Shown: positions 4,464-61,887 of the stretch, in pieces
How positions within the stretch are numbered: position 1 is the stretch's first letter
How the letters are laid out: every line of letters begins with the position of its first letter
From: Patescibacteria group bacterium
GTDB lineage: Bacteria > Patescibacteriota > Patescibacteriia > 2-12-FULL-60-25
Assembly: GCA_018063105.1 (NCBI GenBank)
Contig: JAGOQX010000001.1
Span: 8,551-72,550 of the forward strand
Direction: 5' to 3'
Length of the DNA stretch: 64,000 nt
Translations under genes and position numbers: made by a program
Notes under the pieces: model-generated
What the model saw: the letters and a program-made list of their open reading frames with translations, nothing else
Database searches by the model: none
Told to the model about the DNA's origin: nothing

Positions 4464-4466
4464 TTG

Positions 4467-7816: not shown

Positions 7817-7866
7817 TATTCGTTCAGTTTTTTGCTTTCGTTATCGCGTATCACGTTTTCTAAAAA

Positions 7867-8850: not shown

Positions 8851-8881
8851 CCGAGCCAGCATCTCTTAACCTTGACACCTT

Positions 8882-8910: not shown

Positions 8911-8916
8911 TGATCC

Positions 8917-9165
8917 ATGAATAAGGAGATCAACAATCACGAAGTCTATTCAACGGTTGAAGCACAACAGCTGCTTAAAATCAGCGAAAGCACCATCAAG
9001 AGACTGCTCAAAAAGGGGCTCATCAAAGCAAATAAAGTCGGCGGCCAATATCGCATTCTTGGAAAAGAGCTGCTTCGCCTTGTTTCACCAGAAGCGGAAC
9101 AACAAGCGATACAATCTTATCTGAAGCTCAAGAAAAAAATCGTCACAAAGATCAACCCTTGGTAA
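8917..9165 (+). CDS. Small excisionase/MerR-type helix-turn-helix (HTH_17-like) DNA-binding protein
   Basis: 82-aa ORF. YSTVEAQQLLKISESTIKRLLKKGLIKANKVGGQYRILGKELLRLV matches the excisionase-family HTH pattern (helix, then a basic wing ...G..yRI). Confidence 0.65.
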   Translation: MNKEINNHEVYSTVEAQQLLKISESTIKRLLKKGLIKANKVGGQYRILGKELLRLVSPEAEQQAIQSYLKLKKKIVTKINPW

Positions 9166-9171
9166 CTTGAT

Positions 9172-9987: not shown

Positions 9988-9993
9988 ATCTCT

Positions 9994-41943: not shown

Positions 41944-44900
41944 TTACAAGCTGAGGGTCTGTGATTGTGACAAGTCCTGAACGTACAAGTCGTTTGTCCA
42001 GTCGCGGGATCCCGTCTGAGCCACAGGTGAGTGTGGGACTTCTGAGAAATCTGACCAAACGAACGTACCTGTTGCGGAGCCGGTTCCACCTGATGGAGCG
42101 GCTGCCGTATCAATGTTAAATACATTGGCCGTTGCAGTAAGAGCGTTGTAAGCTCCCGTTGCCAAGTAACCAGTCACGACCGGGTTCGTGTTATCACGGT
42201 AGAACGACGTTGTCACGCTCTTGCCAGAGGTAGCGCCTGAAACCGTCGCATGCAACGTGTAAACATTTCCTGATCCGGAGATCGATTCTTCCTGACCAGC
42301 AGCCATTGCTACGACAACGAACACGGCTTGTGCGTCGCCTGTTGCGATGGAACCAGTGATCAAGTTATCTGTCGATGTACCGTTTGTGATCGTGTATAGG
42401 CTTGTATCCATATCCGTTCCGCCGCGGCGTAATCGGAAGTTGGACAATGTAACACCAGCACTCTTTGTCACTTGGAAGATAGCTTGCTTCCAGGCGATTG
42501 AACCTGCGCTGTCAGCAGCAATCTGCCACTTGATCAAGTCTTGATCCGTGTTTGACAATGTTGCTGAAGACAAGGATTGCTTCGTGACGATTGGCATGCT
42601 CTTGCGAAGGACCATGACGTTGCCAGCAGATGAAACTGCGGCGGCGTACAATCGTTCACCAGAAGCGAGACCCGTTGCACGAATGTTCTCCATGCTTGCG
42701 TAGCTTGAGCTCCATTCACCGGTCTGAAGACCGCTCATGAGATCAACAGCTGGGACATGACCCGAGCGAGAAACGCCCGTGTTTGCTCCGCTAACGGAGC
42801 TGGATGCCTGAACAGCTGAAAGTTTTGCCCAAACCTGGAACGTTACTGAGCTGTCCTTCGGAACCGTAATTGGGTTCGCGGAAAGATCAAGGTCCTTCGT
42901 TCCGGTTGCACCGGATGAGAAGAGACCCTCAGCCTTCACTGCACCATTCATAGCAATTGCAACGCCGGCGAAGTCTGCATTATCAGACATCAAACCTGCT
43001 GTTGCGCTTGCTGTTTGAAGAGCGATGCGGTCAAGTGAGATCGCTTCATATTGAGCAGTTGCCTTGTATTGTGCCATTGGGATCCAGGCATCTTTGCCAG
43101 CAACCACAATGTTTGATGCTGGGTGAGCATCAGGAGCAATGGTCAAAGATCCGTTTGCACGCACCGTCTGAATGACGGAAGGGGCCGCACCAGTTGCCTG
43201 GGCTGTGACCGCTGCATCAAGCGATGCTGTAACCGTGTTGGAATCCTGGTCCTGAGCTGAAACATCAGCTGCTTCAGCGATACCAACAGCGATCTGGTCG
43301 TAGTCTGCTGTTGATGAAGCCGTTGAGGAAAGGGTCGCTTTCACTGTCAATGTCTTGGACGTTCCCTTTGGAATGACCAAATTCATGTTTGAGATCTGTG
43401 CCTTACCTGTTGTTGCATCAGGTGACTTGGCAAGACCGACCTGCGTTGCGCCGTCGAACAATGCGAGGGACGTCACGCGATCATCGAAGTTTGTCAAGTT
43501 ACAAGCTGCACCACCGAAGTCTTCACTGTTACAACCGGACGTTACGAGGTCAGCCTGACCTGCAAGCGTCAAACTCGTAACCGTGATGTCTGACTGTGCA
43601 GAAGCTGCGAGCACGAGGCCGGCAACTGGAACATCAGCCTGTTTCTTAACCACCGTTCCGGAAACCGGATTGGAAGCCAAGGAAACCGTCAATGAAGAGG
43701 TCTTGACCGTCAAAGCATTACCCGTGACGTCTGTGTTCGGGACGATCTTGGAAGTTGCCAAGAATTCACCCGTGTCAACAACGCGGACATCGCTTGAGCC
43801 AAAGGCTGCGAAGGCTGCCTTGTATTCACAGAGACCTGTTGATGAGAAGTACGCTGCACCGTCATCTGAACCACTGTACAAATCAGACACCAAAGCCAAG
43901 TTCATTGATTGACCGGCTGAGATGTTGAAAGAATCAGTAAAGGTCAATGTTGCTGTTGTTGCCGAGTCGGCAGCTGACATCTCCAAAGGACCCATCACTG
44001 TTGTGCCCGTGTCCAAATTCTTGACCTTGATGGATCGGAAGTAGTCTACTCCTCCTGCACCAACAACTGTACAACCTGTACCGGCGGTTTTTGTGATGGT
44101 GAAGACCATCTTACGAACCTCCAATGTGTTGTCTGGTGAGGACAAGGCAAATTTGTACAATGGAACGCCCAATTGACCCTTCGCAATGTTTGTTGTTGCT
44201 GGGCCATTGAATGCGTTTGTCAATTGACCACCTTGAGTTGTTACCTCAACGTAGTTCGTTGAAGTTCCATCAAAGTTTGCTGAACCACCTGAACAGCCAG
44301 TGGCTGTGCTGATGATACAGGTCTGTGCGCCTGCTCCGTATACACGATCCATCGCGATCAAATCCGTCGTGTACTCAACGTACGTGCGGATTGTGCGGCT
44401 TGCGCGACCACCAACGTCAGCCTTCAAAGAGAAGTTCTTCGTTGTGCCGTTTGCAATCATGTATGAAGGGCTGAACTTAAGCGTGATGCGGCCATTTGCG
44501 TCGACCGAAGCAGCTGTAGCAACCAATGTTGCGCCCTGGTACAAGTTGAAGTTCGTCAAATCCGAGTTGGTAACGCTACCAGCCTGGTAGAGCGTGACTT
44601 GTTTCACGTCCACATCGTTGGTGTTTGCAACCAATTTGAAGTTTGAGATTTCAACCTGCTTTGAACCGATTGTTGGGTTCGCTGGGGTTGTTCCCTTCTG
44701 GATATCAACGCGAGCAGCTGAGGAAGTTCCAACCGTGAACACGTTTCCGCGTACTGGGAAGGCACCTGAGACCGTCGAGTTACCGCTGACCACGACTGAA
44801 GCCGCGTCAACAAGTTCGAAGGAGTGCTGACCACCTGTGGTCGTCGTGTAGATGTCGCCGTAGACGACAAGTGACAACGTTTGACCAGCAGCGATCGTTT

Positions 44901-45882
44901 GGTTCAAGCCGTTGAATTCAACAACGTTTGTTGCTGCATTGACCGTGCGACCCGTTGTGAGGCGCTTGCCATTTGCATCATACAAGTAGACGTTGGCGAA
45001 ATCGCTGACAGCGCCAACACCAACGCGGTGGAAGCGGACTCCTGTCACCACGACGCTTGCGCTACCTGCGGTCAAGTTGACCTTGGTGAGCTGGACGCCG
45101 GATGAATTCTTAGGAACTGTCATGCCAGCTGGGGTGTCTGATGCCAAAGCAACGGACAACGCACCACCGACAACCGGACCTGCACCCGCCGAGACCGTGT
45201 CAGCCAAAACTGACTCACGACCTGCGACGTCTGAACCGTTTCCGTAGGAAAGGGTTGTGGTGATGACGTTGGCTTTATTCAAACCGTTCGCTGCGAATGC
45301 AGCGTCTGATGAGAACTTGCGCTTCATACCGCCCATGACTACGTACACCGATGAATCACCGGCGTATTGAATCAATGAACCATCCGGGTGGACGTTCGTT
45401 GAAACTGATGAACCAACCGTGTAGTTGACAAAGAAGCCATCGGCAACGTCAACAACGCGGGATGCCCATGCATTACCGTAGAGAGCCTTGGCAACAGCTT
45501 CGGACTCAATCCAGTGAAGGACGCCACCTGGGGTGACGGCATAGGTCTTAGGATCTGTCGTGATCTTCACGAGCTTTGTGCCCGAGCGAAGAGTGACGTT
45601 TCCACCAATCTGAACAGCAGCTAATTCTGCATCCGTAATGGTTTTAACGGAGGAGAAGTCAGCGTACCATGACATGTATGTTTTTTCGTTAGGAAAAACA
45701 TAGCGTTTGCCATCTGCAGCGTAGAAATACACAGCAGGGCCTGAGGCCTTGATCAAATCACCGCCGGAGAGAGTGGCTGCTGACGCAACACTTGGAAGCG
45801 CCAATGAACCAACGCCCACGGACCAAGCAATTGTGGTCAATGTGACGAACACGGAAAAAACCTTTTTAAGAGCTTGTAACAT
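41944..45882 (-). CDS. Large secreted S/T/A/G/V-rich cell-surface (S-layer-like) protein with tandem beta-sandwich-like modules
   Basis: 1312-aa ORF. Signal peptide ...GSLALPSVASA/ATL. N-terminal repeated Y-x-V-x-G-x-K-R-x-F modules. Repeated ...V.V..VTL...G...N..LY.G...V...G...L.F...G.TK.F.LKA units. Only six Cys. Flanked by a 259-nt upstream spacer and its own terminator. Confidence 0.7.
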   Translation of the reverse strand: MLQALKKVFSVFVTLTTIAWSVGVGSLALPSVASAATLSGGDLIKASGPAVYFYAADGKRYVFPNEKTYMSWYADFSSVKTITDAELAAVQIGGNVTLRSGTKLVKITTDPKTYAVTPGGVLHWIESEAVAKALYGNAWASRVVDVADGFFVNYTVGSSVSTNVHPDGSLIQYAGDSSVYVVMGGMKRKFSSDAAFAANGLNKANVITTTLSYGNGSDVAGRESVLADTVSAGAGPVVGGALSVALASDTPAGMTVPKNSSGVQLTKVNLTAGSASVVVTGVRFHRVGVGAVSDFANVYLYDANGKRLTTGRTVNAATNVVEFNGLNQTIAAGQTLSLVVYGDIYTTTTGGQHSFELVDAASVVVSGNSTVSGAFPVRGNVFTVGTSSAARVDIQKGTTPANPTIGSKQVEISNFKLVANTNDVDVKQVTLYQAGSVTNSDLTNFNLYQGATLVATAASVDANGRITLKFSPSYMIANGTTKNFSLKADVGGRASRTIRTYVEYTTDLIAMDRVYGAGAQTCIISTATGCSGGSANFDGTSTNYVEVTTQGGQLTNAFNGPATTNIAKGQLGVPLYKFALSSPDNTLEVRKMVFTITKTAGTGCTVVGAGGVDYFRSIKVKNLDTGTTVMGPLEMSAADSATTATLTFTDSFNISAGQSMNLALVSDLYSGSDDGAAYFSSTGLCEYKAAFAAFGSSDVRVVDTGEFLATSKIVPNTDVTGNALTVKTSSLTVSLASNPVSGTVVKKQADVPVAGLVLAASAQSDITVTSLTLAGQADLVTSGCNSEDFGGAACNLTNFDDRVTSLALFDGATQVGLAKSPDATTGKAQISNMNLVIPKGTSKTLTVKATLSSTASSTADYDQIAVGIAEAADVSAQDQDSNTVTASLDAAVTAQATGAAPSVIQTVRANGSLTIAPDAHPASNIVVAGKDAWIPMAQYKATAQYEAISLDRIALQTASATAGLMSDNADFAGVAIAMNGAVKAEGLFSSGATGTKDLDLSANPITVPKDSSVTFQVWAKLSAVQASSSVSGANTGVSRSGHVPAVDLMSGLQTGEWSSSYASMENIRATGLASGERLYAAAVSSAGNVMVLRKSMPIVTKQSLSSATLSNTDQDLIKWQIAADSAGSIAWKQAIFQVTKSAGVTLSNFRLRRGGTDMDTSLYTITNGTSTDNLITGSIATGDAQAVFVVVAMAAGQEESISGSGNVYTLHATVSGATSGKSVTTSFYRDNTNPVVTGYLATGAYNALTATANVFNIDTAAAPSGGTGSATGTFVWSDFSEVPHSPVAQTGSRDWTNDLYVQDLSQSQTLSL

Positions 45883-46141: not shown

Positions 46142-47266
46142 CTATGGCTGCGTTTGCCCTGTTTCCGGCGTGCTATTCGTTGAAGAAGTATCTTGCATTG
46201 TTGTTGTACTCGTTTCTGATGTAGAGGAGGTCACACCTGGCTCCACCGCATCCTGAACCTGAGGAGTAGACCCATCACTCGTAGATGATGCGGCTGCCGC
46301 AACATCAAGCTGATCCTGCGCTTTTTGCAGCGTAAAGGCCTGCGTCGTCATATCCTTCATTTGGTTTACGAGTTCTGGCAATGTTGAAGAAGCTGTCGCT
46401 ATAGTGGAGGTCACCGAAGGCACTATCTCGATGGTTGAACTGGCGCCCTGGGTGTCGCTCATCAACGCGGAGGATGCTAGCATGTCCGTCACCACTTTTG
46501 TATGGTCTTGAATCGCCTGCTGCACATCGCCTTCTGTAATCGCATCATTTGATTCTTGGTGCTTTTCTACCATCACCTCAATAGCTTTGATACCCATATC
46601 TGCAGCAACAGACTGAACCTCCGTCACTTTTTCAACGGATTCTGGGGAAAGGAGTGATTTGGTTTCTTGTAATGCATTAATCACCTCGTTTGTTTTTTGA
46701 TCAATCATTCTTGCTGCGGCAACGGCATTTTCCGCTGGAACTTCTTTAGTGACATCGGCAAGCTGTTGTTTCATTGTATTCAAATCTCGCTTCAAAATTT
46801 CGGCGACCTGTGCAACCTGCGATCGTCGAGAATCGTCTTTTGCAACCTGTTGAAGCTCGTTCACTCGTCGTTCAGTAAAATGCGTTTTCAATTTGAGTTG
46901 ATCCTGTTTCGTTCCTGCCATCACAAGTTGCGCCTGTTCGCTCACTAATTTTAATCCATAAAACACATCGCCTGGCAGTGCACGCTCGGCCGCTGAAACG
47001 GACAACATTGATCCACCAGCAAGAACCGCTACAAGCGAAATCACAGCCATCACCGGTCTGCGAACTAATTCACCAATGCGACTTGCTGAAATAAATCGAA
47101 CATACGCATGCGCACGTTCAGATATTGTTGCTTTCCCAAGAGGCAATGTATTACCGATCTGCATCACCAACGTTTCTCGGGTTGCACGAACCCACGCCGC
47201 ATCAGGCTTGATGTGGCGTTCAGTCATCTGTATAGACCGAAGTCGTTGTTGAAAATCTTTGCTCAT
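46142..47266 (-). CDS. Bitopic anti-sigma-factor-like protein (DUF5667-type)
   Basis: 374-aa ORF with a 4-nt overlap with the upstream sigma gene. One TM helix (VMAVISLVAVLAGGSML), then AERALPGDVFYGLKLVSEQAQL typical of DUF5667, coiled-coil segments and an S/T-rich tail. Confidence 0.6.
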   Translation of the reverse strand: MSKDFQQRLRSIQMTERHIKPDAAWVRATRETLVMQIGNTLPLGKATISERAHAYVRFISASRIGELVRRPVMAVISLVAVLAGGSMLSVSAAERALPGDVFYGLKLVSEQAQLVMAGTKQDQLKLKTHFTERRVNELQQVAKDDSRRSQVAQVAEILKRDLNTMKQQLADVTKEVPAENAVAAARMIDQKTNEVINALQETKSLLSPESVEKVTEVQSVAADMGIKAIEVMVEKHQESNDAITEGDVQQAIQDHTKVVTDMLASSALMSDTQGASSTIEIVPSVTSTIATASSTLPELVNQMKDMTTQAFTLQKAQDQLDVAAAASSTSDGSTPQVQDAVEPGVTSSTSETSTTTMQDTSSTNSTPETGQTQP

Positions 47267-47841
47267 GATTCTTTCGTGTCTTGCGTATCCGTTTCCTGCA
47301 GAGCTTTGAGCGCCCTGTGGAACATCACTCGCACATGTCCGGGTTTCTTTTCAATGATCTCACCGATAACGGAGAACGGGAGGTCATCGATTAACCGGAG
47401 CGTCACCACATCTCGATAGTCTTCTTTTAACCGATCGAGCCGCTGAAGGATCAGGCTGAGATCAGCTCGCGCCTCGATCAGCGCCTGACCGCCCCCTTTA
47501 TCGCTTTCATGCTCAATAACAGTAGACGTTGAATCAGGGTGAAACGTTACAGACTCCACAATCACGTCCCCGGTCTTGCGATAATGGTCCGCGATCAGAT
47601 TTTTCACGATTCTGTATAAAAGGGCCCGAATATGGGTTACTTCATGCTGTTGACTCACGTATTGCCAGGCCCGCGTAAAGGTTTCAGCCGTCACATCCTG
47701 CGCGTCCTCCTTACTAGGTAATTTTAAAAATGCATATCGATAAATAGCCTCCACATAGCGGTCATAAATCCGCGCGAAGGCTTCAGGGTCCCGTTTCGTT
47801 CTGACTCGAAACAGGAGGTAGCTGTCAAATACATTAGTCAT
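47263..47841 (-). CDS. ECF-type sigma-70 family RNA polymerase sigma factor
   Basis: 192-aa ORF. Region 2 FARIYDRYVEAIYRYAFLKLPSKEDAQDVTAETFTRAW. Region 4 YRDVVTLRLIDDLPFSVIGEIIEKKPGHVRVMFHRALKAL. Confidence 0.85.
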   Translation of the reverse strand: MTNVFDSYLLFRVRTKRDPEAFARIYDRYVEAIYRYAFLKLPSKEDAQDVTAETFTRAWQYVSQQHEVTHIRALLYRIVKNLIADHYRKTGDVIVESVTFHPDSTSTVIEHESDKGGGQALIEARADLSLILQRLDRLKEDYRDVVTLRLIDDLPFSVIGEIIEKKPGHVRVMFHRALKALQETDTQDTKES

Positions 47842-48046: not shown

Positions 48047-48733
48047 ATGAAATATCAATATTCAACCACCGTAACGCTTGCCGTCTGCAGTATTCTTCTG
48101 CTTTCCTCCCCGGTATTTGCTGCCACAAGCGCTGCCCCCGCATCAAAGTGCGTCACAACAAAAACACAAGGCATGCATGCGAGCGCAACGGCTCAAATGG
48201 AAAAAGATATTGCTGCATACGCAAAAACGGCATCCGCCGAATCAGCCATTCAAACATATCGACAAAACATGGTTACCGCATGGGATGCGATGACCGAACC
48301 GTATTGTGGATTCGGATCATACGGAGCAGCTTCAGCCGTTAAGTCATATTCAAAGAGTGTTATTCGTGCACGAACTGCATTTTTAAACGCGGTCAAAGGT
48401 AAGCCTGCCGTTGCCGTGGTCGCTGCATCAAACACCCCAAAAACAGTTCCAGCGCCCGTAGAAACCAAAATACCAAAAGCAACAACATCATCAGCCTCAA
48501 CACTTCGAGGCCTTCATCGCGGAATGGAGTCTGATGCTGTGTTGACACTCCAAAAACTTCTTCAAACGTATTCTGGATCCAAAGACAACTCATTGCTCAC
48601 CGGGTATTTTGGACCAAAAACTGAAAAGGCAGTCATCGCATTTCAAATTGCATCAAAACTCATTTCTGATGCTGATGCACCTGGCGCAGGAACGATTGGA
48701 CCACGCACAGCTGCAGCACTCGAAAAACTCTAA
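48047..48733 (+). CDS. Secreted protein with C-terminal peptidoglycan-binding domain (PG_binding_1)
   Basis: 228-aa ORF. Signal peptide ...LLLSSPVFAATS. C-terminal GMESDAVLTLQKLLQ...LTGYFGPKTEKAVIAFQ...GTIGPRTAAAL. Confidence 0.7.
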   Translation: MKYQYSTTVTLAVCSILLLSSPVFAATSAAPASKCVTTKTQGMHASATAQMEKDIAAYAKTASAESAIQTYRQNMVTAWDAMTEPYCGFGSYGAASAVKSYSKSVIRARTAFLNAVKGKPAVAVVAASNTPKTVPAPVETKIPKATTSSASTLRGLHRGMESDAVLTLQKLLQTYSGSKDNSLLTGYFGPKTEKAVIAFQIASKLISDADAPGAGTIGPRTAAALEKL

Positions 48734-48735: not shown

Positions 48736-49413
48736 TTATTTTCCAACAGCAAGCACAGCGCCATACACTCGCTTAGTGCCAACTTTTTTTAATACTCGAG
48801 CAACTTCTTGCATCGTTGAGCCCGTTGTATACACATCATCAACCAGAAGAACTGCTTCCGGCACTTTTGCGTTTGGCAAGATATAAAATAGTTCTTGGAC
48901 GTTCGCTTTTCGCAAAAGCCCGGTCTCAAGACGCGCTTGAGGTAAGCGATCTTCATCTGCACGCTGCACGCATCGCCCCATTGCTGCCCAAGGCAAGACC
49001 GCTGCTTGAAAACAGCGCGCGATAATTTCAGTTTGATCAAATCCACGCGAACGCACATGACTCGGCGCTCCAGGAATTGACTGAATCAATAGCTGCTCCT
49101 CCCCTGCCCACGGCCACGGACCCAAATGAAATTCCTTCCAGTCCATGAGATATTGTTTGAACAACGGCTCAATACACGTTGCGCCGCGATACTTTAATCC
49201 AGTGATAGCACTCCGAAGCTTTTGATCATGGTACCAACCCGTAGCAACTAAACCATCCAAAACCCCAATATTCGAGTGAACGTTCGTTGACGCGAATTGT
49301 ATTCCACTCCGACAGGATTCACACCACCAAGATCCGTGCGCTTGACAGGCCACGCAATGAGGCGGAAAAAAGACGTCATAGACGCCATTTTTCACTGATT
49401 CAACCCAACGCAT
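48736..49413 (-). CDS. comFC: ComF-family protein (ComFC; phosphoribosyltransferase-type competence protein)
   Basis: Start set at the ATG at 49413, 1 nt after the upstream stop. 225 aa. N-terminal zinc finger PPHCVACQ...WWCESC. C-terminal PRT motif VLLVDDVYTTGSTM. Confidence 0.8.
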   Translation of the reverse strand: MRWVESVKNGVYDVFFPPHCVACQAHGSWWCESCRSGIQFASTNVHSNIGVLDGLVATGWYHDQKLRSAITGLKYRGATCIEPLFKQYLMDWKEFHLGPWPWAGEEQLLIQSIPGAPSHVRSRGFDQTEIIARCFQAAVLPWAAMGRCVQRADEDRLPQARLETGLLRKANVQELFYILPNAKVPEAVLLVDDVYTTGSTMQEVARVLKKVGTKRVYGAVLAVGK

Positions 49414-49414
49414 A

Positions 49415-50023
49415 CTACAATGCAATGTCCGTCCACTCGAGATGATCAATCAAATACCCACCAGAAGGCTGACGCATAAACGTCACCTTCACCTGTTTAC
49501 CCTGAATCCGTGATGGCGCATTAGACGCGCCTACATTTTCATATTGAATCGCATCAACTGATACGAGAATTGACGCATCGCCGATCACGCCATTTTCAGC
49601 ATGCGAGGAAACGACTCGTGTTGAAATACCAAACAACGGACCTGACGCAGGATGCGCTTGCTGCATCGTCTGTTGAGCAGCACGAATTTCTATCGCCCCC
49701 GATTGCGTCATATCACTCATCGCATCTTCAGTTCCCAAAAAACCATTTTCACTTGAACCGGAGCCAATACGCTCAACCGTTGCCTTCGCTCGATCCTCAA
49801 GGACACGCAATTGCAAAGTTGCGGTTGGAATAGCCACTGGCGTAGACGTGCTTGTCGGAACAACGACTTTTGGACCTGCGACATACGGAATATCAGATGT
49901 TGGCGCAGGAGGCGCGAGCGCTTTTCGCTGAGCAAGATACGGCGAAAGCAAGAGATACAAGCCAAGTAGCAAGAGGAGTAATCCTACGATGATAACGATG
50001 GCGAGTTTTGTACGTTTTTGCAT
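49415..50023 (-). CDS. Bitopic membrane-anchored hypothetical protein (T4SS-operon member)
   Basis: 202-aa ORF. N-terminal TM KLAIVIIVGLLLLLLGLYLLL, a Pro-rich linker and a roughly 130-aa C-terminal domain. Tightly packed between VirB4 and comFC. Confidence 0.55.
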   Translation of the reverse strand: MQKRTKLAIVIIVGLLLLLLGLYLLLSPYLAQRKALAPPAPTSDIPYVAGPKVVVPTSTSTPVAIPTATLQLRVLEDRAKATVERIGSGSSENGFLGTEDAMSDMTQSGAIEIRAAQQTMQQAHPASGPLFGISTRVVSSHAENGVIGDASILVSVDAIQYENVGASNAPSRIQGKQVKVTFMRQPSGGYLIDHLEWTDIAL

Positions 50024-50031
50024 AGCAACAA

Positions 50032-51936
50032 TTAAGCCGTTTTCGGCGCTTCAAGTGATTCTTGGAATTCTTTCTTTGCCGCTTCAATCTTCAATAACTG
50101 ATTCGGATCTGTTGTGACAATCTGATCTTCTGTATATGACGCAACGATCTGAATAGCCGCATGCTTCTGTCCGGCAAAGAAAATTCCTTCACCGCGACCT
50201 GATTCAAGCAAGAGATACTTTTCAGACTGCGTCAACATGAACACGCGAGCAACGAGATCGATGGACGCAGGTGATTGTTTCAACAGCAACTGCATTGCCG
50301 AGTTCGTCACAATGGCCTGACCATACGGTGAGGTCAAAAAGTCATTCACGTCTTGTGTGATCGTGGTGATGCCAAGGTAATACTTACGACAACGCTTCAC
50401 GAGAGCAAAGATGAATTTCGCGGAGTCTTCGTGTTGCATCAACCACCACGCCTCATCAATACACAAAATACGTTTTTTGCGTTCAGATCGAACAACGTTC
50501 CAGATATAGTTGACGATCGTATAGATTGCCATTGGTCGCAACTCATCTTCCAAATCACGGACAGAGAAAATGACGAGTTGATTATTCATACGCACCGTTG
50601 TTGGCGAGTTGAGCAACCCGGAGAATGTTCCTTCTGTATATTTTTTCAAACGCAACACCAGATCCCCCGTCCCCTCCATACCTTCCAAAATATCCTGAAA
50701 ATCCTGCATGATCGGAGGCGTGACCGTAGTCAAATCTGCACCCGGCACAATATCTTTTTTCGCGTACGTTTCCAAAAGTGCACGATCCAAAATAGAATCT
50801 TCAGACACGGTGAGTTTTCCCAACATCAACTTCAACAACCCCTTCACCGTAATAACAGCGCTTCGAATCACGTCCTCCACAGATACAGATTCACCCGTTG
50901 GGCGAGGAAGATCAAACGGATTAATCTTTGCCGTTGATGACAGCGAGATATTCACATACGTTCCACCCACCGCATCAGACAGATGCTTGTATTCCATTTC
51001 AGGATCAATCACGATGACATCCGTCCCCAACATCATGGAACGTAAAATTTCGAGCTTAATGGAATAGGATTTTCCAGCACCAGACGTTGCGAAGATAACC
51101 GCATTCGCGTTCGGCAACGAGAATCGATCAAAAATAATCAACGAATTATTATGACGATTAATCCCGTACAAGATGCCGTTATCAGACGTGAGCTCAGCCG
51201 AAGTAAATGGAAACGAAGAAGCAAGCGGCGAGGTGCTCATGTTAAACGTGATCATGAGCTCATCATTTCCAACGGGCATTGTTGAATTGAACCCTTGTTC
51301 TGCTTGGAAATAGGCGCGCTTCGTATAAATCAACATCGAACCGAACGTTGATTCAACGGTACGCGATAATCGTTCAAGCTCCTCAACAGACGTTGAATAA
51401 AAACTGCAATAAAAGGCAAATTGAAAAAAGTGCTCAATTCCCTGCGTCAGATCATCACGCAACTGTTCGATGTCTCGAAGCGCCGTTTCTGCAATTGGAT
51501 CACGAGGTTTTCCGGCTTCTGCATCTGATGTAATTTGCGATTCAACAATACCAACCTTCTTTTTCAACTGTTTCAAAATAACATCTGCTTTGATTGGATA
51601 GAAAAACATCGCCGTATCCATCTGCGCGTTCAAATTGATGATCGGCGAAGCCCAACCAACGGACACGTATCGAGGATAGGTAATGATGAACAATGTGCGA
51701 ACCCACACATCACCAAGCCGCACAAAGCTCGGTTCGATTTTCATGGAACTCGGCGCAATCAAGTCGCGAATACTCGCAATACCACGACGATAAATTCGCT
51801 CCTCCTCAAGCAAGACCTTTTCCTTTTCCTGCTCCTGTTTCATCTGCTCTTTCGATGGACCACGGCGCAGCCCAACGCCTCCGGCCGTGATGACAGAAGG
51901 GTCTAATTTTTTTTCTTCTTGAGGAGTGAATGCCAT
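50032..51936 (-). CDS. VirB4/TrbE/PrgJ-family T4SS ATPase (C-terminal major part)
   Basis: 634-aa ORF. IAPSSMKIEPSFVRLGDVWVRTLFIITYPRYVSVGW, Walker A FATSGAGKSY and Walker B RILCIDEAWWLM. Confidence 0.85.
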   Translation of the reverse strand: MAFTPQEEKKLDPSVITAGGVGLRRGPSKEQMKQEQEKEKVLLEEERIYRRGIASIRDLIAPSSMKIEPSFVRLGDVWVRTLFIITYPRYVSVGWASPIINLNAQMDTAMFFYPIKADVILKQLKKKVGIVESQITSDAEAGKPRDPIAETALRDIEQLRDDLTQGIEHFFQFAFYCSFYSTSVEELERLSRTVESTFGSMLIYTKRAYFQAEQGFNSTMPVGNDELMITFNMSTSPLASSFPFTSAELTSDNGILYGINRHNNSLIIFDRFSLPNANAVIFATSGAGKSYSIKLEILRSMMLGTDVIVIDPEMEYKHLSDAVGGTYVNISLSSTAKINPFDLPRPTGESVSVEDVIRSAVITVKGLLKLMLGKLTVSEDSILDRALLETYAKKDIVPGADLTTVTPPIMQDFQDILEGMEGTGDLVLRLKKYTEGTFSGLLNSPTTVRMNNQLVIFSVRDLEDELRPMAIYTIVNYIWNVVRSERKKRILCIDEAWWLMQHEDSAKFIFALVKRCRKYYLGITTITQDVNDFLTSPYGQAIVTNSAMQLLLKQSPASIDLVARVFMLTQSEKYLLLESGRGEGIFFAGQKHAAIQIVASYTEDQIVTTDPNQLLKIEAAKKEFQESLEAPKTA

Positions 51937-51956
51937 AAAATAAAAGTATCGATTGG

Positions 51957-52637
51957 TTATCCCTCTACTTGCAACTTCTCAATCGGAACCATGCGCTGCG
52001 TTTCAAATAATTCCGGATTATACACCGTGTAAAACAACTCGATCAGACCCTGTGTATCAAGCATTACCGCGTTCAATGACATGGACTGTAGCCCACCCAT
52101 AATCGCGTTCACCCGCAACATCAAGGACTCTTTATTCTTTGCAAAACGCTCTTCAGAAAGATGAATCGCAACAGATGGTGTTAATATTTCCGAGAGACGA
52201 GCAAAAAATCCTTTTTGTTTATCCGTTGTTGGATCAAGTGGGATCACCACAAAAAACTTTTTCTGCATGATTTCACCCAGATCAACCAGCTGTTTCACGT
52301 AATCACGGTAGTCTGCAATCTGACGACGTAAGAGATCATTGGTTTGATTTCGCTCCTGCTCATTCAACTTCCGAATATATTCATCGATGTTCATCCGACG
52401 AGACTGAATCACGACCTGAATGGGAAAATCCAAGGAATTCAAGAACTGCATGTATGCCTGAACAATAGCGTTCTGTTCATCCATTGATTTCAGCGCAAAA
52501 TTAATACTCGAGACCAATAGGACCGCGCGCGTTGTTCCATCTTTCATCACGATCACGTTCTCCTTGATCTCTGCAATATCAAGGTACCTCTGAGAGGGAA
52601 CGCCTGGTTTACTGCCTGCGAGTTTTTTGCTTTGCAT
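51957..52637 (-). CDS. VirB4 N-terminal-domain-like protein (split VirB4, N part)
   Basis: 226-aa ORF. YLDIAEIKENVIVMKDGTTRAVLLVSSINFALKSMDEQNAIVQAYMQFLNSLDFPIQVVIQS matches the extreme N-terminal pattern of Gram-positive VirB4s (Tn916 Orf16/PrgJ type). 20-nt gap to the ATPase ORF. Confidence 0.6.
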   Translation of the reverse strand: MQSKKLAGSKPGVPSQRYLDIAEIKENVIVMKDGTTRAVLLVSSINFALKSMDEQNAIVQAYMQFLNSLDFPIQVVIQSRRMNIDEYIRKLNEQERNQTNDLLRRQIADYRDYVKQLVDLGEIMQKKFFVVIPLDPTTDKQKGFFARLSEILTPSVAIHLSEERFAKNKESLMLRVNAIMGGLQSMSLNAVMLDTQGLIELFYTVYNPELFETQRMVPIEKLQVEG

Positions 52638-52639
52638 AC

Positions 52640-53080
52640 TTAAAAAGAGTCATCCTCTGGTTTATAAACACCACCTGTGTTAACGATCAATGACAGATCT
52701 CGTAACCGACTACTTTCTGGTCGTGGCTTCAGTATCGCTACTTGGGTTGGAGGTAAGACACCAATCTTTGTCCAAGCTCGTAATTCCGCATCTGTCGGCC
52801 GCTTATCCCACGTTCGCAATGCAGGACGAATCGTTGTTTGCAAAAAGTTCACGAAAAAAATATGAAATGGCTGACCGTTGATTTTCAAGAAGCTAAAAAC
52901 ACCTGCAAGCGGCGCAACGATCACGATGAACAGGATAAAATACGGCGTTGCCAAAATACGAGATGCGATAAAAATCGAAAACACCGCAATCAGACAGATC
53001 AAAAATTGGCGAACCGTAATCGGACCGAGGATTTGGTCTTCGTTATCAATGAACTGCGGGACGATGAATTTCTCTGGCAT
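52640..53080 (-). CDS. PrgI/Orf17-like small two-TM T4SS protein
   Basis: Start trimmed to MPEKFIVPQF (ATG at 53080), because the longer ORF extends into the repeat element. VPQFIDNEDQILGPITVRQFL followed by two TM helices is the PrgI-family pattern. Confidence 0.65.
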   Translation of the reverse strand: MPEKFIVPQFIDNEDQILGPITVRQFLICLIAVFSIFIASRILATPYFILFIVIVAPLAGVFSFLKINGQPFHIFFVNFLQTTIRPALRTWDKRPTDAELRAWTKIGVLPPTQVAILKPRPESSRLRDLSLIVNTGGVYKPEDDSF

Positions 53081-53098
53081 GTGGAAAAAGATTTTTTT

Positions 53099-53214
53099 GC
53101 TCGTCATTCCGACCAAGGAGTCAGACGACACGCGGAGGAATCGCTTAGATGCACGGTCGACCGGACGACTAAGGGATCCCTCGGCTTCGTCAGACTTCGC
53201 TCGGGATGACGAAG
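53099..53214. repeat. Roughly 110-nt imperfect-palindrome (MITE/REP-like) element, copy 2, inverted relative to copy 1
   Basis: The reverse complement reads ttcgtcatcccgagcgaagtctgacgaagccgagggatcccttagt ... ctaagcgattcctccgcgtgtcgtctgactccttggtcggaatgacgag. Both arms of about 45 nt are nearly identical to 4354-4463, and only the central 16-20 nt differ. Confidence 0.8.
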
Positions 53215-53246
53215 AGAGGATACTGACCAGGACATGGCGTTTCTCA

Positions 53247-55037
53247 TCAGAAGTGTAGCTTACTATTCAGTGAAATGATAGCAGCGATTTCCGTTGGCGT
53301 CGGACACTCCTCCCCTGCCGCCCGCTTCTCATCCGCAAGTTGTGCGACCGGTTTTGCTTTTTGAAACGCTTCAGACATCAAATGAATATACGCCTGCTGC
53401 AATGGACAGGATTGCCAAGCACGAATCCCCTCAATACGTCGCTCCAGTGATTCCTGATTCAGGATATCAATCCGCTGCATGATTTTCTGTATGGCTGCCT
53501 CCGGATCTTTCGATAGCCGTCGAAATTCGATGATAGACATTTCCTTTAACTCCTGAATTGGACCGGTCAACCGAGGCCCTCCATACTTCACATCATCAAG
53601 ACGTGGTTTTGATTGCGCGGCCACGGTTTGCAAGTCAGCCGTTGCTTTCGAAACCTTCACCTCTTGGCTCGCAACAGCAGGAGCAACCTTGGCCTGAGTG
53701 AAGGGGCTGACCGGTGACGGAATCACCTGAGCAGCACCAACCGGAACCGCCGCGCCAGAAGCTACGGCAGGAACCATTTTCCCAAATCTCTGTTCTTCTG
53801 TTGCTCGCTCTTTCATATCCATCGGATGGACCGCTGCAAACGCCTGCTTCATTCGATCTGCAACCTGCTTATTTTCATCTTCAATCTGTTTTCTAGAAGC
53901 GATCTTTTCTTGATACCATTTCGCATGCTCCTCAGCCTCACGCTTCTTCCGCTCCGTCACTTTTACTGACTGCTCCTGCATCTGCTGTTCCAATTTCGCT
54001 TTTTCATCCTGCATGATGGATGAATGAAACGCCGCATATTGCGCCTCAATCTGTTTCACCGTTGCATCCGCCGTTGCCTGATCATAGCCCATCCCGCCAA
54101 CCTTCGTGTCCCGCATGAGAAGCTGCGTCAGCTCAATCGTGTTACGGACATCACGCAAACGAGAAGAGATGATATAACGAAGACGTTTCGCAGAATATTC
54201 GTCCGCTGGTTTTGTAGACAACGAAGCAAACGTTGTTTCAACCGCCTGGTCCAAAACACTCTGCGGACTATTTATCGGTTTCTGCATCTGCGCCGAAATC
54301 GCCGCAATCTCAGACTCATCTTCTGTAAGTGGTTTTGCAGCAACATCCTCCGGCGCAACCTTTGGCTTGCGACTTGCAGAAAGCCAATCAGAATATTCGT
54401 CTTCGGAAAGGATCTGAACCGTACTCACCAACCGACCCATCTCCATCATAGTTCGCTTAGCAAGATCTGCTTCAATCCCCAAGCCACCAAGATCCACCTG
54501 ACGCTGCAATACCTCAAGTATCTGTTCATCCGTACGGATTCCTTTAATCTTACTCACAAGCAATTCTCGTAACCGATCACGCTGCTGCTGACTCATCAAC
54601 GTCATTCCAACACGATTACTAATTTCAGAAACAACACCGGAGTAAGAAAGCGGCTTAAGTAGAATGTGAGTTTCCGGCCAACCTGTCGTTGAAATCTTGT
54701 ATCGATCCAGGACACTCGTCAGTTCATCACCGTATAATTCACGTAAAGGCCACACGGCAGCCTGCAATATGCCGGCGAGAAAACCAGACCAGCCTTCTTC
54801 GTGCATCGAAACTGGAACAAGATCAAATTTAAGTTTTTCAACAGCTTCAAGCAGAGAGAGGTCATTAAAGGCAGTCGCGATAAGCATCTTTGACAGCTTA
54901 TCAATTTGATCATCATTTAATGAAGCATGCTGTGCGACAATAGCTAAATTACTATCAAAGTCCGAGGAAAGCAAAAAGGCTCGCACCCCCACCGGAAGAT
55001 CTGCAAACATCCTATATGTAGTGCGCGTAGCAGGCAT
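53247..55037 (-). CDS. Hypothetical soluble coiled-coil protein (T4SS-operon member, no recognised domain)
   Basis: ATG at 55037; the track ORF begins at a TTG at 55067. About 596 aa. Central Lys/Glu-rich coiled coil (EKAKLEQQMQEQSVKVTERKKREAEEHAKWYQEKI). No TM helix and no motif I recognise. Confidence 0.55.
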   Translation of the reverse strand: MPATRTTYRMFADLPVGVRAFLLSSDFDSNLAIVAQHASLNDDQIDKLSKMLIATAFNDLSLLEAVEKLKFDLVPVSMHEEGWSGFLAGILQAAVWPLRELYGDELTSVLDRYKISTTGWPETHILLKPLSYSGVVSEISNRVGMTLMSQQQRDRLRELLVSKIKGIRTDEQILEVLQRQVDLGGLGIEADLAKRTMMEMGRLVSTVQILSEDEYSDWLSASRKPKVAPEDVAAKPLTEDESEIAAISAQMQKPINSPQSVLDQAVETTFASLSTKPADEYSAKRLRYIISSRLRDVRNTIELTQLLMRDTKVGGMGYDQATADATVKQIEAQYAAFHSSIMQDEKAKLEQQMQEQSVKVTERKKREAEEHAKWYQEKIASRKQIEDENKQVADRMKQAFAAVHPMDMKERATEEQRFGKMVPAVASGAAVPVGAAQVIPSPVSPFTQAKVAPAVASQEVKVSKATADLQTVAAQSKPRLDDVKYGGPRLTGPIQELKEMSIIEFRRLSKDPEAAIQKIMQRIDILNQESLERRIEGIRAWQSCPLQQAYIHLMSEAFQKAKPVAQLADEKRAAGEECPTPTEIAAIISLNSKLHF

Positions 55038-55047
55038 AACAACGAAA

Positions 55048-57915
55048 CTACGTAATACGTGCAACAAATTTCTCGAGATCCTTGTGCTTTTCCATCGCTT
55101 TTCTCATCATCAATGCCTGCTCTTCCTTTGAACCGGAACTAAACCGTTCTCCCAACTCAGAACGTTTATTAATAGCATTCGTTGATATATATATAGATCG
55201 CACAACTTCTTCAACTTTTTTAGCCATTTCACCCTTCGCCTCCTTAGAAATTGTTCCAAGATTATCCATTCTCCCAGGCGTGGACATAATTTTCACGACA
55301 TTTTCTGTCATCTTTCCACCTTGCTGAATAGCTTGCGTATCCATATTCGCAACATAGCTGATAGCATGAATCCGATCATTTATGTCCGTGGAAGCGATAT
55401 TCATCATGACTTCATTCATATTTTCTGCATCAGCAACCTCCTGTTCTGCGGTTCCATATGTTCCCGCTGCAGTATCATATCCAACCGTCACAGATGACGG
55501 TAAACCCTTTATCTGACCCTGTTGCATCACCGCACGTTCACTGACGCTATACGAGGAACCCATAGGACCAGTTGCATATAAGTTAGCAGCCGAACGACCG
55601 CTACTCCTATCTGCAAGATGCTTCATCTTATCCATGTCAATTTCAACTCCAATCTTTTTCGCAATGTCATCCGCCTCAGATACGGTAATCGTAAGCGCTG
55701 CCGGAGGAACAGCCGCAGCACCAAGGCCACGCGTTACATCGCTCCAAGAGTTATAGGTAGATGCAGGTCCCGTGGCTGCAACGCCGGTTCCGATTGTTGC
55801 GTATGCAAGACCGGTCGGCGTCATTGTCATACGCGCGTCTAAACCCGTAGAAACTTTTCTTGATTCCAACCCATCAATATGTGCTGCAACGGTTTTAGCA
55901 ATTTCACCACCACCAGCCATAACCTTTTCGTACGCCTTTGAATTACGCAATCCCTCATAATCACCCGTGCTAAGAAAGCTCTTAAACAGGCCTTCGACAA
56001 CACGCGTATCCTTCAACGAATCAGACTGCAAATAGGAAAATAGGCGTTCCGGATTTGCAATTGCTTCTTTCATATATCCAGAGACATCTGAACCCGGCGC
56101 AACCATATCCGGACGCTTCTCTAAATACGATTTAAAAGCCTTTATCTTATCTTCATCATTTCTAGCCTCAGCCGCTGCTAAACCGGCAGCAATTTGAACT
56201 GCAGCCTCTCCACGAACTCTTGCGTCAGCATCCCCATCAGACATACCGGCCTTTACATAAGCCTCTTTTCTACTCTTTAGCGCGTTACTATCCATAGCCC
56301 ACGCTCCAATTTGCATCGCTGACGCTTCTTTCACGTCATCCGTCCCATTAGCTGCCAAATATTGAACACCCTCAATCCCCTTGGTGTAGCCACCCTTTGT
56401 ATATGCGGCCAAAGCCAACTTTTGTGCTTCTTCCGTTTCATATTTATTTGAAGCCAATGTACTTCCACCTTGAGACTTATAAAAAGCAGCTTGCATCGAT
56501 AGTGGAACCTGTCCGCCACGTTCTTCCAACTTCTTCTTTGCAGCAGCCTTATCTTTTTGCGAAATAGAAACCAATCCAGCACCCATGATACCAGCCGCCT
56601 TTCCAAACATACTGTTTGGACTTTGAGCCCCCTCTTGAACAAGCGCCTTTCCAATTCCTGAACTGATCCCCCATCGTCGATCCACCGCCTTCGCTGTCCC
56701 CTTCCCCGCCTTATACCCCAACATCGCTGCCCAACCAGCAGGACCACCAGTGGATTTAATCTTATTCGCTACCTGTCCAAGCTGCCCCGCAGTTTCTGTT
56801 GACACTCTCACCGCTGTACTCAATCCAATCATCAACATGATTGCTGCAACCAAAAAGGTCTGCATCTTTTCTGGTCTTCCAACTCCAGTCACGGTTACCC
56901 CTAATTGGGCCTGATCTGCTGCGCTGCCTGGCGTATAAATTTTTTCTGTGACGGCAAAGTTGTCACCTCCATTTTGAACCATGGCAAATGTGAGCCACAA
57001 AAAGAACGCGATGATCGGTCCACCGGTCAGCATGGTTGAAAGCTTTTTCCACCACTCACCCGTAAACGTCGAAAGCGATGCTTTTAACGTGTCTGGAAGC
57101 GCTGTGGCAAAAAAGGCTGCTGGGGAAAAAATCAACAAGACCCACAACATCACAATGCGCACGATAAAATAGATGCACATGATGAGCATGATCGTTGCGA
57201 CAACCGAAAGCATACCGACTGCAAAAACCAAAGCTATAATAACTTCTGAAGGATCGTGATCGGTAGCACCATACGCTCCCTGCATCACGGTTAACATATC
57301 CGTCAGCCCAAATGCTGCCATAAAATTTCCAAGGGCAGCCGCTCGGAATCCGTTCACAAACGTTAATGTGAGCACCTGTGAAAAATCAATCAGCAATCCA
57401 ACGAGTGTCTTTGAAAAGTTGATCAACACGGACATGAGCAACAATTTTGGAACAACTTTTTTATAATGAAACTTTTCGTATCCGATAATTGTTGAAAATG
57501 CCACGACGAGCAACACTAAAATAAAGAACATGTTGCACACATCACGAACTAATGGCCATCCAATCAACACCGGCTGAGCTTGAACGAAATTATTATATTG
57601 GGCCGCCTGAATCATCATGTCTGCCAATGCATTATTAAGCATCAGCAATAACTTCACGATGAGATAAAGCAAACCGCTCACCAAACCCAATATCGGACCA
57701 AAAATTGTATAACCCGTTTGATCCGTCAGAGGACCAAACACGGCATCCGCGTTCACAGGGCGTACGTATGCAATCAAGATGAGCAATGCTACAAATCCAC
57801 CCAAAGCAGGGAGCGCATACTTAGAGTGCAGAGCTTCAGCAAATATTTTTCCGCGCATAAAAAGATGTTCACATGCGCGACGTGTACGCGATAGAATCGC
57901 AAGGTTCATAGCCAT
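55048..57915 (-). CDS. Polytopic membrane protein, VirB6/TrbL- or PrgH/TcpH-like, with a large C-terminal soluble region
   Basis: The ORF is open from 57966 (GTG). ATG candidates lie at 57915, 57909 and 57858. A signal-like segment ALPALGGFVALLILIAYVRPVNA is followed by about 7 TM helices (about 330 aa), then about 570 aa of Ala/Gly/Lys-rich soluble sequence. It is the first gene of the T4SS-like operon. Confidence 0.55.
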   Translation of the reverse strand: MAMNLAILSRTRRACEHLFMRGKIFAEALHSKYALPALGGFVALLILIAYVRPVNADAVFGPLTDQTGYTIFGPILGLVSGLLYLIVKLLLMLNNALADMMIQAAQYNNFVQAQPVLIGWPLVRDVCNMFFILVLLVVAFSTIIGYEKFHYKKVVPKLLLMSVLINFSKTLVGLLIDFSQVLTLTFVNGFRAAALGNFMAAFGLTDMLTVMQGAYGATDHDPSEVIIALVFAVGMLSVVATIMLIMCIYFIVRIVMLWVLLIFSPAAFFATALPDTLKASLSTFTGEWWKKLSTMLTGGPIIAFFLWLTFAMVQNGGDNFAVTEKIYTPGSAADQAQLGVTVTGVGRPEKMQTFLVAAIMLMIGLSTAVRVSTETAGQLGQVANKIKSTGGPAGWAAMLGYKAGKGTAKAVDRRWGISSGIGKALVQEGAQSPNSMFGKAAGIMGAGLVSISQKDKAAAKKKLEERGGQVPLSMQAAFYKSQGGSTLASNKYETEEAQKLALAAYTKGGYTKGIEGVQYLAANGTDDVKEASAMQIGAWAMDSNALKSRKEAYVKAGMSDGDADARVRGEAAVQIAAGLAAAEARNDEDKIKAFKSYLEKRPDMVAPGSDVSGYMKEAIANPERLFSYLQSDSLKDTRVVEGLFKSFLSTGDYEGLRNSKAYEKVMAGGGEIAKTVAAHIDGLESRKVSTGLDARMTMTPTGLAYATIGTGVAATGPASTYNSWSDVTRGLGAAAVPPAALTITVSEADDIAKKIGVEIDMDKMKHLADRSSGRSAANLYATGPMGSSYSVSERAVMQQGQIKGLPSSVTVGYDTAAGTYGTAEQEVADAENMNEVMMNIASTDINDRIHAISYVANMDTQAIQQGGKMTENVVKIMSTPGRMDNLGTISKEAKGEMAKKVEEVVRSIYISTNAINKRSELGERFSSGSKEEQALMMRKAMEKHKDLEKFVARIT

Positions 57916-58009
57916 ACGTTGACGTGTGGAAGTATAGCATACGAACGAGGCCCTCTCACTCTCCACAAAATCCCCGTATCCTGATATAGTTCAAACCACC
58001 ATTATCCTC

Positions 58010-61630: not shown

Positions 61631-61677
<47 letters not shown>

Positions 61678-61887
61678 CTCAGGGCTTGTTTTTCGTGGAC
61701 GAAAAACTCGGGGGTAGAGAGATAGGGGCAGGAGAAGTGTCCACAATTGACACAAACTCAAATTCATGGCAGCGGTATATAAAGACCCTCGGTTCTGCCT
61801 GCGTCTGGTCATACAACCGGGAGACGACGAAGCGTTTTCCTGGGATAACCGCGCACAGACAGAATCGAGGGGACAAACTTGATTTCC

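Follow-up and report, generated by a model that had tools for sequence, protein, structure and literature searches.

A chromosomal type IV secretion operon ending in comFC in an ABY1-class Patescibacterium and its possible role in DNA import

A type IV secretion system (T4SS) whose operon ends in comFC raises the question of what such a system carries and in which direction. We addressed this question in a 64-kb window (the whole stretch of DNA analyzed here) of contig JAGOQX010000001.1 from a Patescibacteria group bacterium, in which seven co-directional minus-strand open reading frames (ORFs) span positions 48736 to 57966; all seven are present where a preliminary description, made from the sequence, had placed them. 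The locus is almost certainly a chromosomal T4SS of the Patescibacteria clade, derived from MPF_FATA-type systems and carried by an Uhrbacteria-like bacterium of class ABY1. It is vertically inherited and is not a conjugative element, and comFC is a fixed seventh gene of its operon. The function that we favor, with a probability of roughly 0.4, is DNA import coupled to ComFC, a reading that draws on analogy with importers known from other organisms.

No T4SS before that of the Patescibacteria had been shown to be essential to its own bacterium, and among the variants only that of ABY1 is linked to a protein whose biochemistry is known, the single-stranded-DNA handler ComFC. For this reason, the ABY1 T4SS is where cargo and direction can be tested most clearly. 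DNA import, if confirmed, would explain how nucleotide-auxotrophic episymbionts feed on their hosts and acquire genes from them. Both the ABY1 arrangement and the idea of DNA import were published in 2025 in a survey of Patescibacteria T4SSs (PMC12102498). The details added here are a structural assignment of VirB8, the reading of the motor as a split VirB4, a lead that connects the 596-amino-acid (aa) protein of the operon to GpsB/DivIVA, and a quantified account of comFC conservation within a bounded gene block.

Composition of the operon

The locus comprises the following features.

55048-57966, minus strand: probable VirB6/TrbL-like polytopic protein, 972 aa (seven transmembrane [TM] helices and operon position)
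53247-55037, minus strand: 596-aa coiled-coil protein, here called p606, with GpsB/DivIVA-N-like modules; specific to Patescibacteria T4SS loci
53100-53213, minus strand: palindromic repeat resembling a miniature inverted-repeat transposable element (MITE); second copy at 4354-4462, plus strand
52640-53080, minus strand: PrgI/VirB3-like protein, 146 aa, two TM helices (Pfam PF12666)
51957-52637, minus strand: TrsD/TraC-like split-off VirB4 N-domain, 226 aa (match to pGO1 TrsD; NCBIfam)
50032-51936, minus strand: VirB4 ATPase of the CD1110 (MPF_FATA) type (NCBIfam conju_CD1110; Pfam P-loop_TraG)
49415-50023, minus strand: VirB8-like bitopic protein, 202 aa (structure model with Foldseek; PrgL profile match)
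48736-49413, minus strand: ComFC, ComF family (Pfam Pribosyltran and DZR_2)
61879-63081, plus strand: dprA, given for context only, outside the operon (Pfam DNA_processg_A and DprA_WH)

Spacings were computed with the best-supported start codons. The stop of the VirB6-like gene (55048) and the ATG of p606 (55037) are separated by 10 nucleotides (nt), while 166 nt, which contain the palindromic repeat, lie between the p606 stop (53247) and the PrgI ATG (53080). The remaining gaps are 2 nt (PrgI-TrsD), 20 nt (TrsD-VirB4), and 8 nt (VirB4 to the VirB8-like gene), and the comFC ATG (49413) lies 1 nt past the stop of the VirB8-like gene (49415-49417), as first described. The PrgI start was set by the N terminus MPEKFIVPQF, which is identical in L001, the closest related locus. 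The start of the VirB6-like gene is ambiguous between GTG 57966, ATG 57915, and ATG 57858, given that the divergent lytR gene begins at 58010. Promoter and terminator scans of the locus rose only to chance level, and neither delimits the operon.

The comFC call was well supported by a zinc ribbon, a phosphoribosyltransferase fold, and a near-full-length ComF alignment, at a score below the curated comF cutoff. Pfam returned Pribosyltran and DZR_2, and TIGR00201 (comF) matched with an E value of 4e-15 over model positions 1 to 184 of 190, under its curated cutoff. Helicobacter pylori ComF (7p0h) was the sole PDB match that aligned the protein near full length (positions 18 to 208 of 223; E = 1.6e-5). 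The four zinc ribbon cysteines (C20, C23, C31, and C34) and the DDV.TTG phosphoribosyl pyrophosphate (PRPP) loop are invariant in the family alignment.

The ATPase carries the Walker A (ATSGAGKS) and Walker B (ILCIDEAWW) motifs for which it had been called VirB4, and Pfam agrees (P-loop_TraG, 3e-28; AAA_10; DUF87). It scored 345.6 bits against NCBIfam conju_CD1110 (cutoff, 325) over model positions 170 to 730 of 752, and it is 24% identical to pGO1 TrsE (E = 3e-45). The first ~170 positions of the conju_CD1110 model are missing from it and are supplied by the 226-aa ORF immediately upstream, whose earlier designation as a VirB4 N-domain holds and which can now be named TrsD. This name follows from matches to pGO1 TrsD (BLASTP E = 9e-8, 28% identity; hhalign E = 1.4e-5) and to NCBIfam models (TrsD, 1.6e-6; VirB4_plasma positions 109 to 233, 2.8e-10; conju_CD1110 positions 15 to 123), all of the NCBIfam matches being under the curated full-length cutoffs. 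A homologue in one related locus, L082, carries a precomputed match to PF26593 (TraC-like). Alignment of the TrsD family by hhalign with this VirB4 family and with pCF10 PrgJ was not significant, and a PDB profile search with the TrsD family returned nothing; the link to VirB4 N-domains is thus drawn from the NCBIfam models. Since TrsD covers the N-terminal part that VirB4 lacks, the motor is split between TrsD and the ATPase, as in pGO1. The PrgI call also held, with a PF12666 match of 1.6e-8 (35.4 bits against a cutoff of 27) and two TM helices.

The 202-aa bitopic protein had been left unnamed, and structure and profile comparisons now assign it as VirB8-like. In it, a TM helix at the N terminus is joined by a linker rich in Pro and Thr to a C-terminal domain of the NTF2-like type. 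Its AlphaFold2 (AF2) model has a mean predicted local distance difference test (pLDDT) score of 83, with values of >90 in the C-terminal domain. The top Foldseek match to this model was CagV (6iqt, 1e-5), and further matches were to Brucella VirB8 (5jbs), Agrobacterium VirB8 (2cc3), TrwG, DotI, TraM, and TraE (E values of 1e-5 to 1e-3 for the CagV, VirB8, TrwG, DotI, and TraM matches). In a family profile search, PrgL (7aed) was the top PDB match (E = 0.019), and hhalign against pCF10 PrgL gave 3e-4. In 68 of the 69 loci examined, the space between VirB4 and comFC is occupied by an equivalent ORF of ~182 to 220 aa that shares this bitopic layout.

The 972-aa polytopic protein, previously called VirB6/PrgH-like, is probably VirB6-like: its seven TM helices and its position fit the call, and the TrbL matches that go with it are sub-threshold and confined to homologues. 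A hydropathy scan placed the seven helices in the first ~390 aa; they are followed by a basic C-terminal tail of ~580 aa, rich in Lys, Ala, and Gly, that is probably cytoplasmic and has no relative in the PDB. The window copy matched no Pfam family. Three homologues gave sub-threshold TrbL matches (PF04610, 2e-4; PF19597, 5.9e-4; and PF04610, 4.3e-4, the last of these, in homologue P0139, covering model positions 5 to 189 of 215), and one further homologue (P0141) carries a precomputed PF19590 match. By hhalign, the family aligned with pGO1 TrsL at an E value of 0.015 and without significance with pCF10 PrgH and pGO1 TrsF; a PDB profile search with it returned nothing. The AF2 model of the N-terminal domain was mediocre (pLDDT, 61), and its Foldseek matches lacked significance, with TrwI/VirB6 reaching the highest probabilities (0.2 to 0.4). 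A word-indexed homologue search with this domain yielded just 11 proteins; an excess of hydrophobic words had apparently overwhelmed it. The gene stands first in the block wherever it was detected (54 of 80 related loci).

Taken with PrgI, the split motor, and the VirB8-like protein, this probable channel subunit makes up a minimal monoderm translocon. The remaining protein, p606, has no predicted TM helix. Family alignments show two GpsB/DivIVA-N-like modules (motif RLRDVR...GGLGL...IE..Y) produced by internal duplication, after which come a coiled coil, a linker rich in Pro, and, at the C terminus, a conserved domain of ~110 aa. A broad p606 family profile matched the GpsB N-domain structures 6gp7, 4ug3, and 6gpz in the PDB (E = 8e-4 to 1e-3), and p606 matched NCBIfam GpsB at 3.3e-3; Pfam had no family for any of 33 p606-family members. 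The family is large and unannotated, with 2242 clusters at 50% identity among 1.84 billion representatives. At E values of ~1e-3, the predicted relationship to GpsB is a lead. That p606 may serve as a membrane-associated cytoplasmic scaffold is likewise a lead suggested by its sequence, not a result.

The repeat insertion noted earlier within the operon was confirmed as a 114-nt palindromic element in the p606-PrgI spacer, with a second copy elsewhere in the window. Both copies (~110 nt) are intergenic and share an exact core of 39 nt, for which 0 matches are expected by chance. Alignment of the two copies gave terminal inverted repeats of 12 nt, TCGTCATCCCGA, and RNA folding of the p606-PrgI spacer gave -55 kcal/mol (z = -3.2). 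The element is absent from this junction in L001, whose VirB4 is 96% identical; since just 16 nt are found there in the closest relative, the insertion is recent.

Conservation of comFC and mobility of the locus

The preliminary description had named conservation of the comFC adjacency as the deciding check. We collected related loci by a profile scan of genome contigs with the VirB4 alignment and retained 80 species-level loci, the best of 552, across which VirB4 is 70 to 96% identical. Gene order and strand are identical in all 76 of the related loci in which at least four families were detected. comFC lies ~0.45 to 0.9 kb downstream of VirB4, on the same strand, in 67 of the 69 loci with enough flank and 2.3 kb downstream in one more, so that it follows the T4SS genes in 68 of these 69 species-level genomes; in the single exception it is 9 kb from VirB4. 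Given the identical gene order and the level of VirB4 identity retained across class-level divergence, the operon is under strong purifying selection.

The proposed translational coupling of comFC stands in part. The stop of the VirB8-like gene abuts or overlaps the comFC start in 42 of 68 loci, but coupling is not universal, since a spacer precedes comFC in the other 26. Past comFC, the genes vary even between close relatives, and the conserved block stops exactly at comFC. On the upstream side, among 45 loci with a full upstream flank, the lytR-der-pth arrangement is found in 23 and dprA is kept near the operon in 13, both exclusively in an Uhrbacteria-like subset. In a different subset, the region downstream of comFC contains recG (11 of the 45 loci) and radA (7 of the 45); neither gene was found among window ORFs of at least 120 aa.

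For a control in the reverse direction, 37 unrelated metagenomic comF loci were found by a generic PRPP-loop pattern; they form a broad background sample rather than a set of ABY1 paralogues. VirB4 was nearby in four of them, three of which have the ABY1 arrangement. In the fourth (L101), whose VirB4 is 44% identical, comFC is divergently adjacent to a PrgI-TrsD-VirB4 cluster. The adjacency of comFC to the T4SS is strongly conserved and lineage specific, and the preliminary description thereby passes the check that it had set. L101 itself (positions 1 to 12693; Hainich groundwater contig ERZ1292623.186) is from a distant Patescibacteria lineage; there, dnaA-dnaN are followed on the opposite strand by VirB4-TrsD and by a PrgI that carries a fused CarboxypepD_reg domain, with comFC ~200 nt away, so that comFC and a T4SS adjoin a second time in another arrangement.

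As to the lineage itself, the VirB8-like protein is identical to an NCBI protein of a "Patescibacteria group bacterium," and VirB4 is 82 to 96% identical to the best 120 Patescibacteria/Uhrbacteria proteins listed (8000 matches fell below 1e-10). Named relatives in this range are Patescibacteria, Uhrbacteria, and one record labeled Methylomirabilis. Where the related loci bear a specific taxon name, it is Uhrbacteria, Magasanikbacteria, or Falkowbacteria, the last of which we take to belong, like the other two, to class ABY1. Uhrbacteria and Magasanikbacteria are placed in that class (PMC12577380). The source lineage is closest to Uhrbacteria, class ABY1. The operon also occurs in dozens of metagenome-assembled genome records (L001, L003, and L011 among them) under the title "uncultured Gammaproteobacteria bacterium" and in one under "Candidatus Methylomirabilis sp."; evidently, these public records are mislabeled or misbinned.

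Whether the locus is mobile was assessed by scanning for domains in all ORFs of the 64-kb window that reach 120 aa or more. As the preliminary description had stated, none of these ORFs has a relaxase, type IV coupling protein (T4CP), integrase, or SLT/CHAP hydrolase domain. No VirB1-type hydrolase (SLT, CHAP, or lysozyme domain) was found in the operon or the window, VirB2, VirB7, VirB9, and VirB10 domains were not found, and no small ORF with two TM helices lies near the operon. The window has no att-like feature, and its composition is even throughout. The rest of it holds an envelope-glycan cluster, a pair of genes for an extracytoplasmic function (ECF) sigma factor and anti-sigma factor, lytR, der, pth, and dprA; ComEC is not encoded there. 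Because its flanks consist of housekeeping and glycan genes and the window has no relaxase, coupling protein, or integrase, the locus is not an integrated conjugative element (ICE), and on this point the preliminary description is supported.

Cargo and direction of transfer

The closest known systems are those of the Patescibacteria clade. The survey by Quinonero-Coronel et al. (2025; PMC12102498) describes a monophyletic VirB4 clade related to MPF_FATA; TrsD, PrgI/VirB3, VirB6, and VirB2-like proteins occur widely in these systems, and the detection of VirB8 is almost confined to ABY1. It further reports that ABY1 T4SS loci commonly include comF, recG, and radA, and it suggests import of DNA or other macromolecules. 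The likeness to our locus extends to the MPF_FATA ancestry of VirB4, to TrsD, PrgI/VirB3, a probable VirB6, and the ABY1 VirB8, and also to chromosomal location, the lack of a nearby relaxase, and the ABY1 co-location of comF/recG/radA. A GpsB/DivIVA-like 596-aa protein, a long VirB6 tail, and comFC directly after VirB8 do not appear in the main text of the survey, figures and supplements aside. Compared with SEML1_0006-0019 of Southlakia epibionticum, our locus lacks the VirB2-like pilin array and the adjacent peptidase/lysozyme, and, unlike the Saccharibacteria cluster, it is not beside dnaA/dnaN.

Among conjugative plasmids, the local order VirB3-TrsD-VirB4 of the pGO1 trs genes (TrsC-TrsD-TrsE) and the order VirB6-VirB3-VirB4-...-VirB8 of the pCF10 prg genes (PrgH-PrgI-PrgJ-PrgK-PrgL) both match the locus, and sequence similarity to these systems is detectable for TrsD, VirB4, and PrgL. 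In contrast to them, the locus has no relaxase, VirD4/PcfC, VirB1-type hydrolase (TrsG/PrgK), adhesin, topoisomerase, or single-stranded DNA-binding protein; it is chromosomal and vertically inherited, and it adds the 596-aa protein and comFC.

Two T4SS-related importers of DNA bear on the question of direction. H. pylori ComB is the precedent for DNA import by a T4SS, and T4CP and relaxase are absent from it (according to a 2025 review). Like our locus, ComB is driven by VirB4 without VirD4, VirB11, or a relaxase, and the cell in which it works makes use of ComFC and DprA as well. It differs in belonging to a diderm, in using VirB2-4/6-10, and in moving double-stranded DNA over the outer membrane only, with ComEC performing the inner-membrane step; comFC is not known to form part of the comB operons. 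The label "ComB-like" given to the locus is a poor fit, a loose one at best, since this is a monoderm MPF_FATA-type set in which no VirB2, VirB7, VirB9, or VirB10 was found. In the crenarchaeal Ced system (CedA/A1/A2/CedB), which operates in a single-membrane cell, a VirB4/HerA-like ATPase and a polytopic membrane protein import DNA from a partner cell with no relaxase in the recipient. Ced differs in having no PrgI, TrsD, or VirB8 and no link to ComFC. On the comparison with the CedB and CedD models, membership in the Ced system was rejected: our VirB4 scored 48 bits against the CedB model NF041017 (cutoff, 700), and this score, like a CedD match of 1.6e-4, reflects generic VirB4 similarity only. 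The locus is thus a member of neither the ComB nor the Ced family, yet by analogy it may work as they do.

Under the favored reading, the T4SS would assemble in the single membrane at the site of contact with the host cell, and VirB4 would power the movement of macromolecules through it. In ABY1 the most likely cargo and direction would be incoming DNA, because comFC is fixed, recombination genes recur as neighbors, donor functions are lacking, and ComB and Ced provide precedents. ComFC would receive this DNA as single strands on the cytoplasmic side, from where it would be handed to DprA/RecA (and RadA/RecG) for recombination or salvage, and the import device would then be analogous to H. pylori ComB or archaeal Ced. 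A more specific proposal, which we consider unlikely, is that of an "inverse conjugation," in which, in ABY1, a Gram-positive conjugation machine has become a dedicated importer of DNA from the attached host, the split VirB4 replaces ComFA/ComEC as the motor with which ComFC is partnered, and a GpsB/DivIVA-like scaffold positions the machine. If this is true, a T4SS would have been converted independently to DNA import for a third time (ComB and Ced being the other two cases), and for the first time in a bacterium that is monoderm.

Several observations weigh against DNA import. The related loci, being the best 80 of 552, form a sample biased toward close relatives, and the linkage of comFC to the T4SS is limited to ABY1 plus one odd case. 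The spacer that precedes comFC in 26 of the 68 loci measures 19 to 242 nt, and no VirB2-like pilin or cell wall hydrolase lies near the operon. Co-regulation or a gene order kept by inheritance, instead of physical coupling, could account for the linkage. Genetic tests of a Patescibacterium come from S. epibionticum alone, where the T4SS proved essential for epibiotic growth (Wang et al. 2023; PMC10633639), whereas ComEC, ComF, and DprA are not fitness genes and transformation requires comEC (PMC10633639). Since the T4SS is essential and ComF is dispensable, the core role of the Patescibacteria T4SS does not need ComF. According to the 2025 review, moreover, the essentiality of the T4SS is not attributable to interaction with ComEC. 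The established partners of ComFC are ComEC and ComFA, and the route through type IV pili and ComEC is widespread in Patescibacteria (PMC10633639).

The main rival account, to which we give a slightly lower probability than to DNA import, is that the T4SS exports effector proteins or forms a conduit or attachment device at the point of host contact, one that the episymbiotic lifestyle would require, as inferred for Saccharibacteria. comFC would then be a co-transcribed passenger, expressed upon host contact, whose product works apart from the T4SS and serves ordinary natural transformation together with type IV pili and ComEC. The authors of the S. epibionticum study themselves proposed protein export or an alternative role (PMC10633639). 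The 2025 survey adds that Patescibacteria T4SSs are widespread in classes without a comF neighbor and that protein secretion by the Ptl and Brucella systems proceeds with no T4CP (PMC12102498); 33 of our 37 background comF loci likewise have no VirB4 nearby, and the spacers before comFC point in the same direction. A passenger gene sits less well with a conserved block that terminates at comFC while both flanks turn over, or with the recurrence of dprA, recG, and radA nearby in different sub-lineages, and no candidate effector or pilin genes were found in or beside the operon.

Export of DNA by a conjugation-like donor apparatus, for which the genes of the coupling protein and of a highly divergent relaxase would lie at other sites in the genome, is improbable. 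In its favor, the ancestry of the locus is that of a conjugative MPF_FATA system, and the visible sequence is limited to 64 kb of the genome. The lack of a coupling protein asserted in the preliminary description is true of this window, but the survey reports most Patescibacteria VirD4 homologues to lie far from virB4: they occur in 2,918 genomes, with 148 of 5,713 near virB4 (PMC12102498). According to the same survey, relaxases were detected in just 103 Patescibacteria genomes, and a distant t4cp homologue is nonessential in S. epibionticum, whereas other T4SS genes are essential (PMC12102498). The locus also keeps its chromosomal place next to housekeeping genes across dozens of species, which argues against a transfer module. 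To our knowledge, ComFC has no role in the processing of donor DNA. Finally, the minimal gene set, in which no hydrolase, T4CP, or relaxase was found in the window, and the MITE-like insertion inside the operon might suggest the decaying remnant of an ICE that landed by chance beside comFC. This is extremely unlikely, and we rejected it on the conservation data given above (76/76 loci in gene order; 70 to 96% VirB4 identity). All seven ORFs are intact, no integrase, att-like feature, or compositional shift was found, and the MITE-like element is confined to a spacer and absent from L001.

Neighboring genes

Several genes around the operon merit description. Immediately downstream, at 48047-48733 on the plus strand, a secreted PG_binding_1 protein is encoded convergently with comFC, the two stop codons being 2 nt apart. 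It is followed at 46142-47841 (minus strand) by an ECF-type sigma factor whose gene overlaps by 4 nt that of a DUF5667 protein, which may be its anti-sigma factor. The sigma/DUF5667 pair and the PG_binding_1 gene are not conserved beside the T4SS in relatives, save for the peptidoglycan-binding protein in L031. At 41944-45882 (minus strand) lies a gene for a 1312-aa protein with an N-terminal hydrophobic segment and no Pfam or NCBIfam match. Homologues that are 50 to 54% identical are encoded 3 to 4 kb downstream of comFC in L009, L016, and L024, and the protein may be a surface protein loosely tied to the T4SS locus.

Positions 1549-41838 are taken up by a very large envelope-glycan cluster with many GT1/GT2/GT4 glycosyltransferases, a Wzy_C-TPR ligase, and a Wzm/Wzt ABC exporter. 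It also encodes two asparagine-synthase paralogues, an ATP-grasp enzyme, several methyltransferases, an adenosine phosphosulfate (APS) kinase, a sulfotransferase, and a phosphoenolpyruvate (PEP)-utilizing enzyme. This content suggests a sulfated surface polysaccharide.

On the other side of the operon, dprA (Pfam DNA_processg_A, 6e-73, plus DprA_WH) is divergent from the T4SS genes and stands behind lytR-der-pth. The distance of 12 kb previously given for it is correct as measured from comFC (12.4 kb), but dprA lies beyond the operon's 5' end, at a distance of only 3.9 kb, and not downstream. Between pth and dprA, a spacer of 419 nt contains a perfect (AC)21.5 dinucleotide microsatellite (61633-61675), which is unusual in a small bacterial genome and could act as a slippage-prone switch upstream of dprA.

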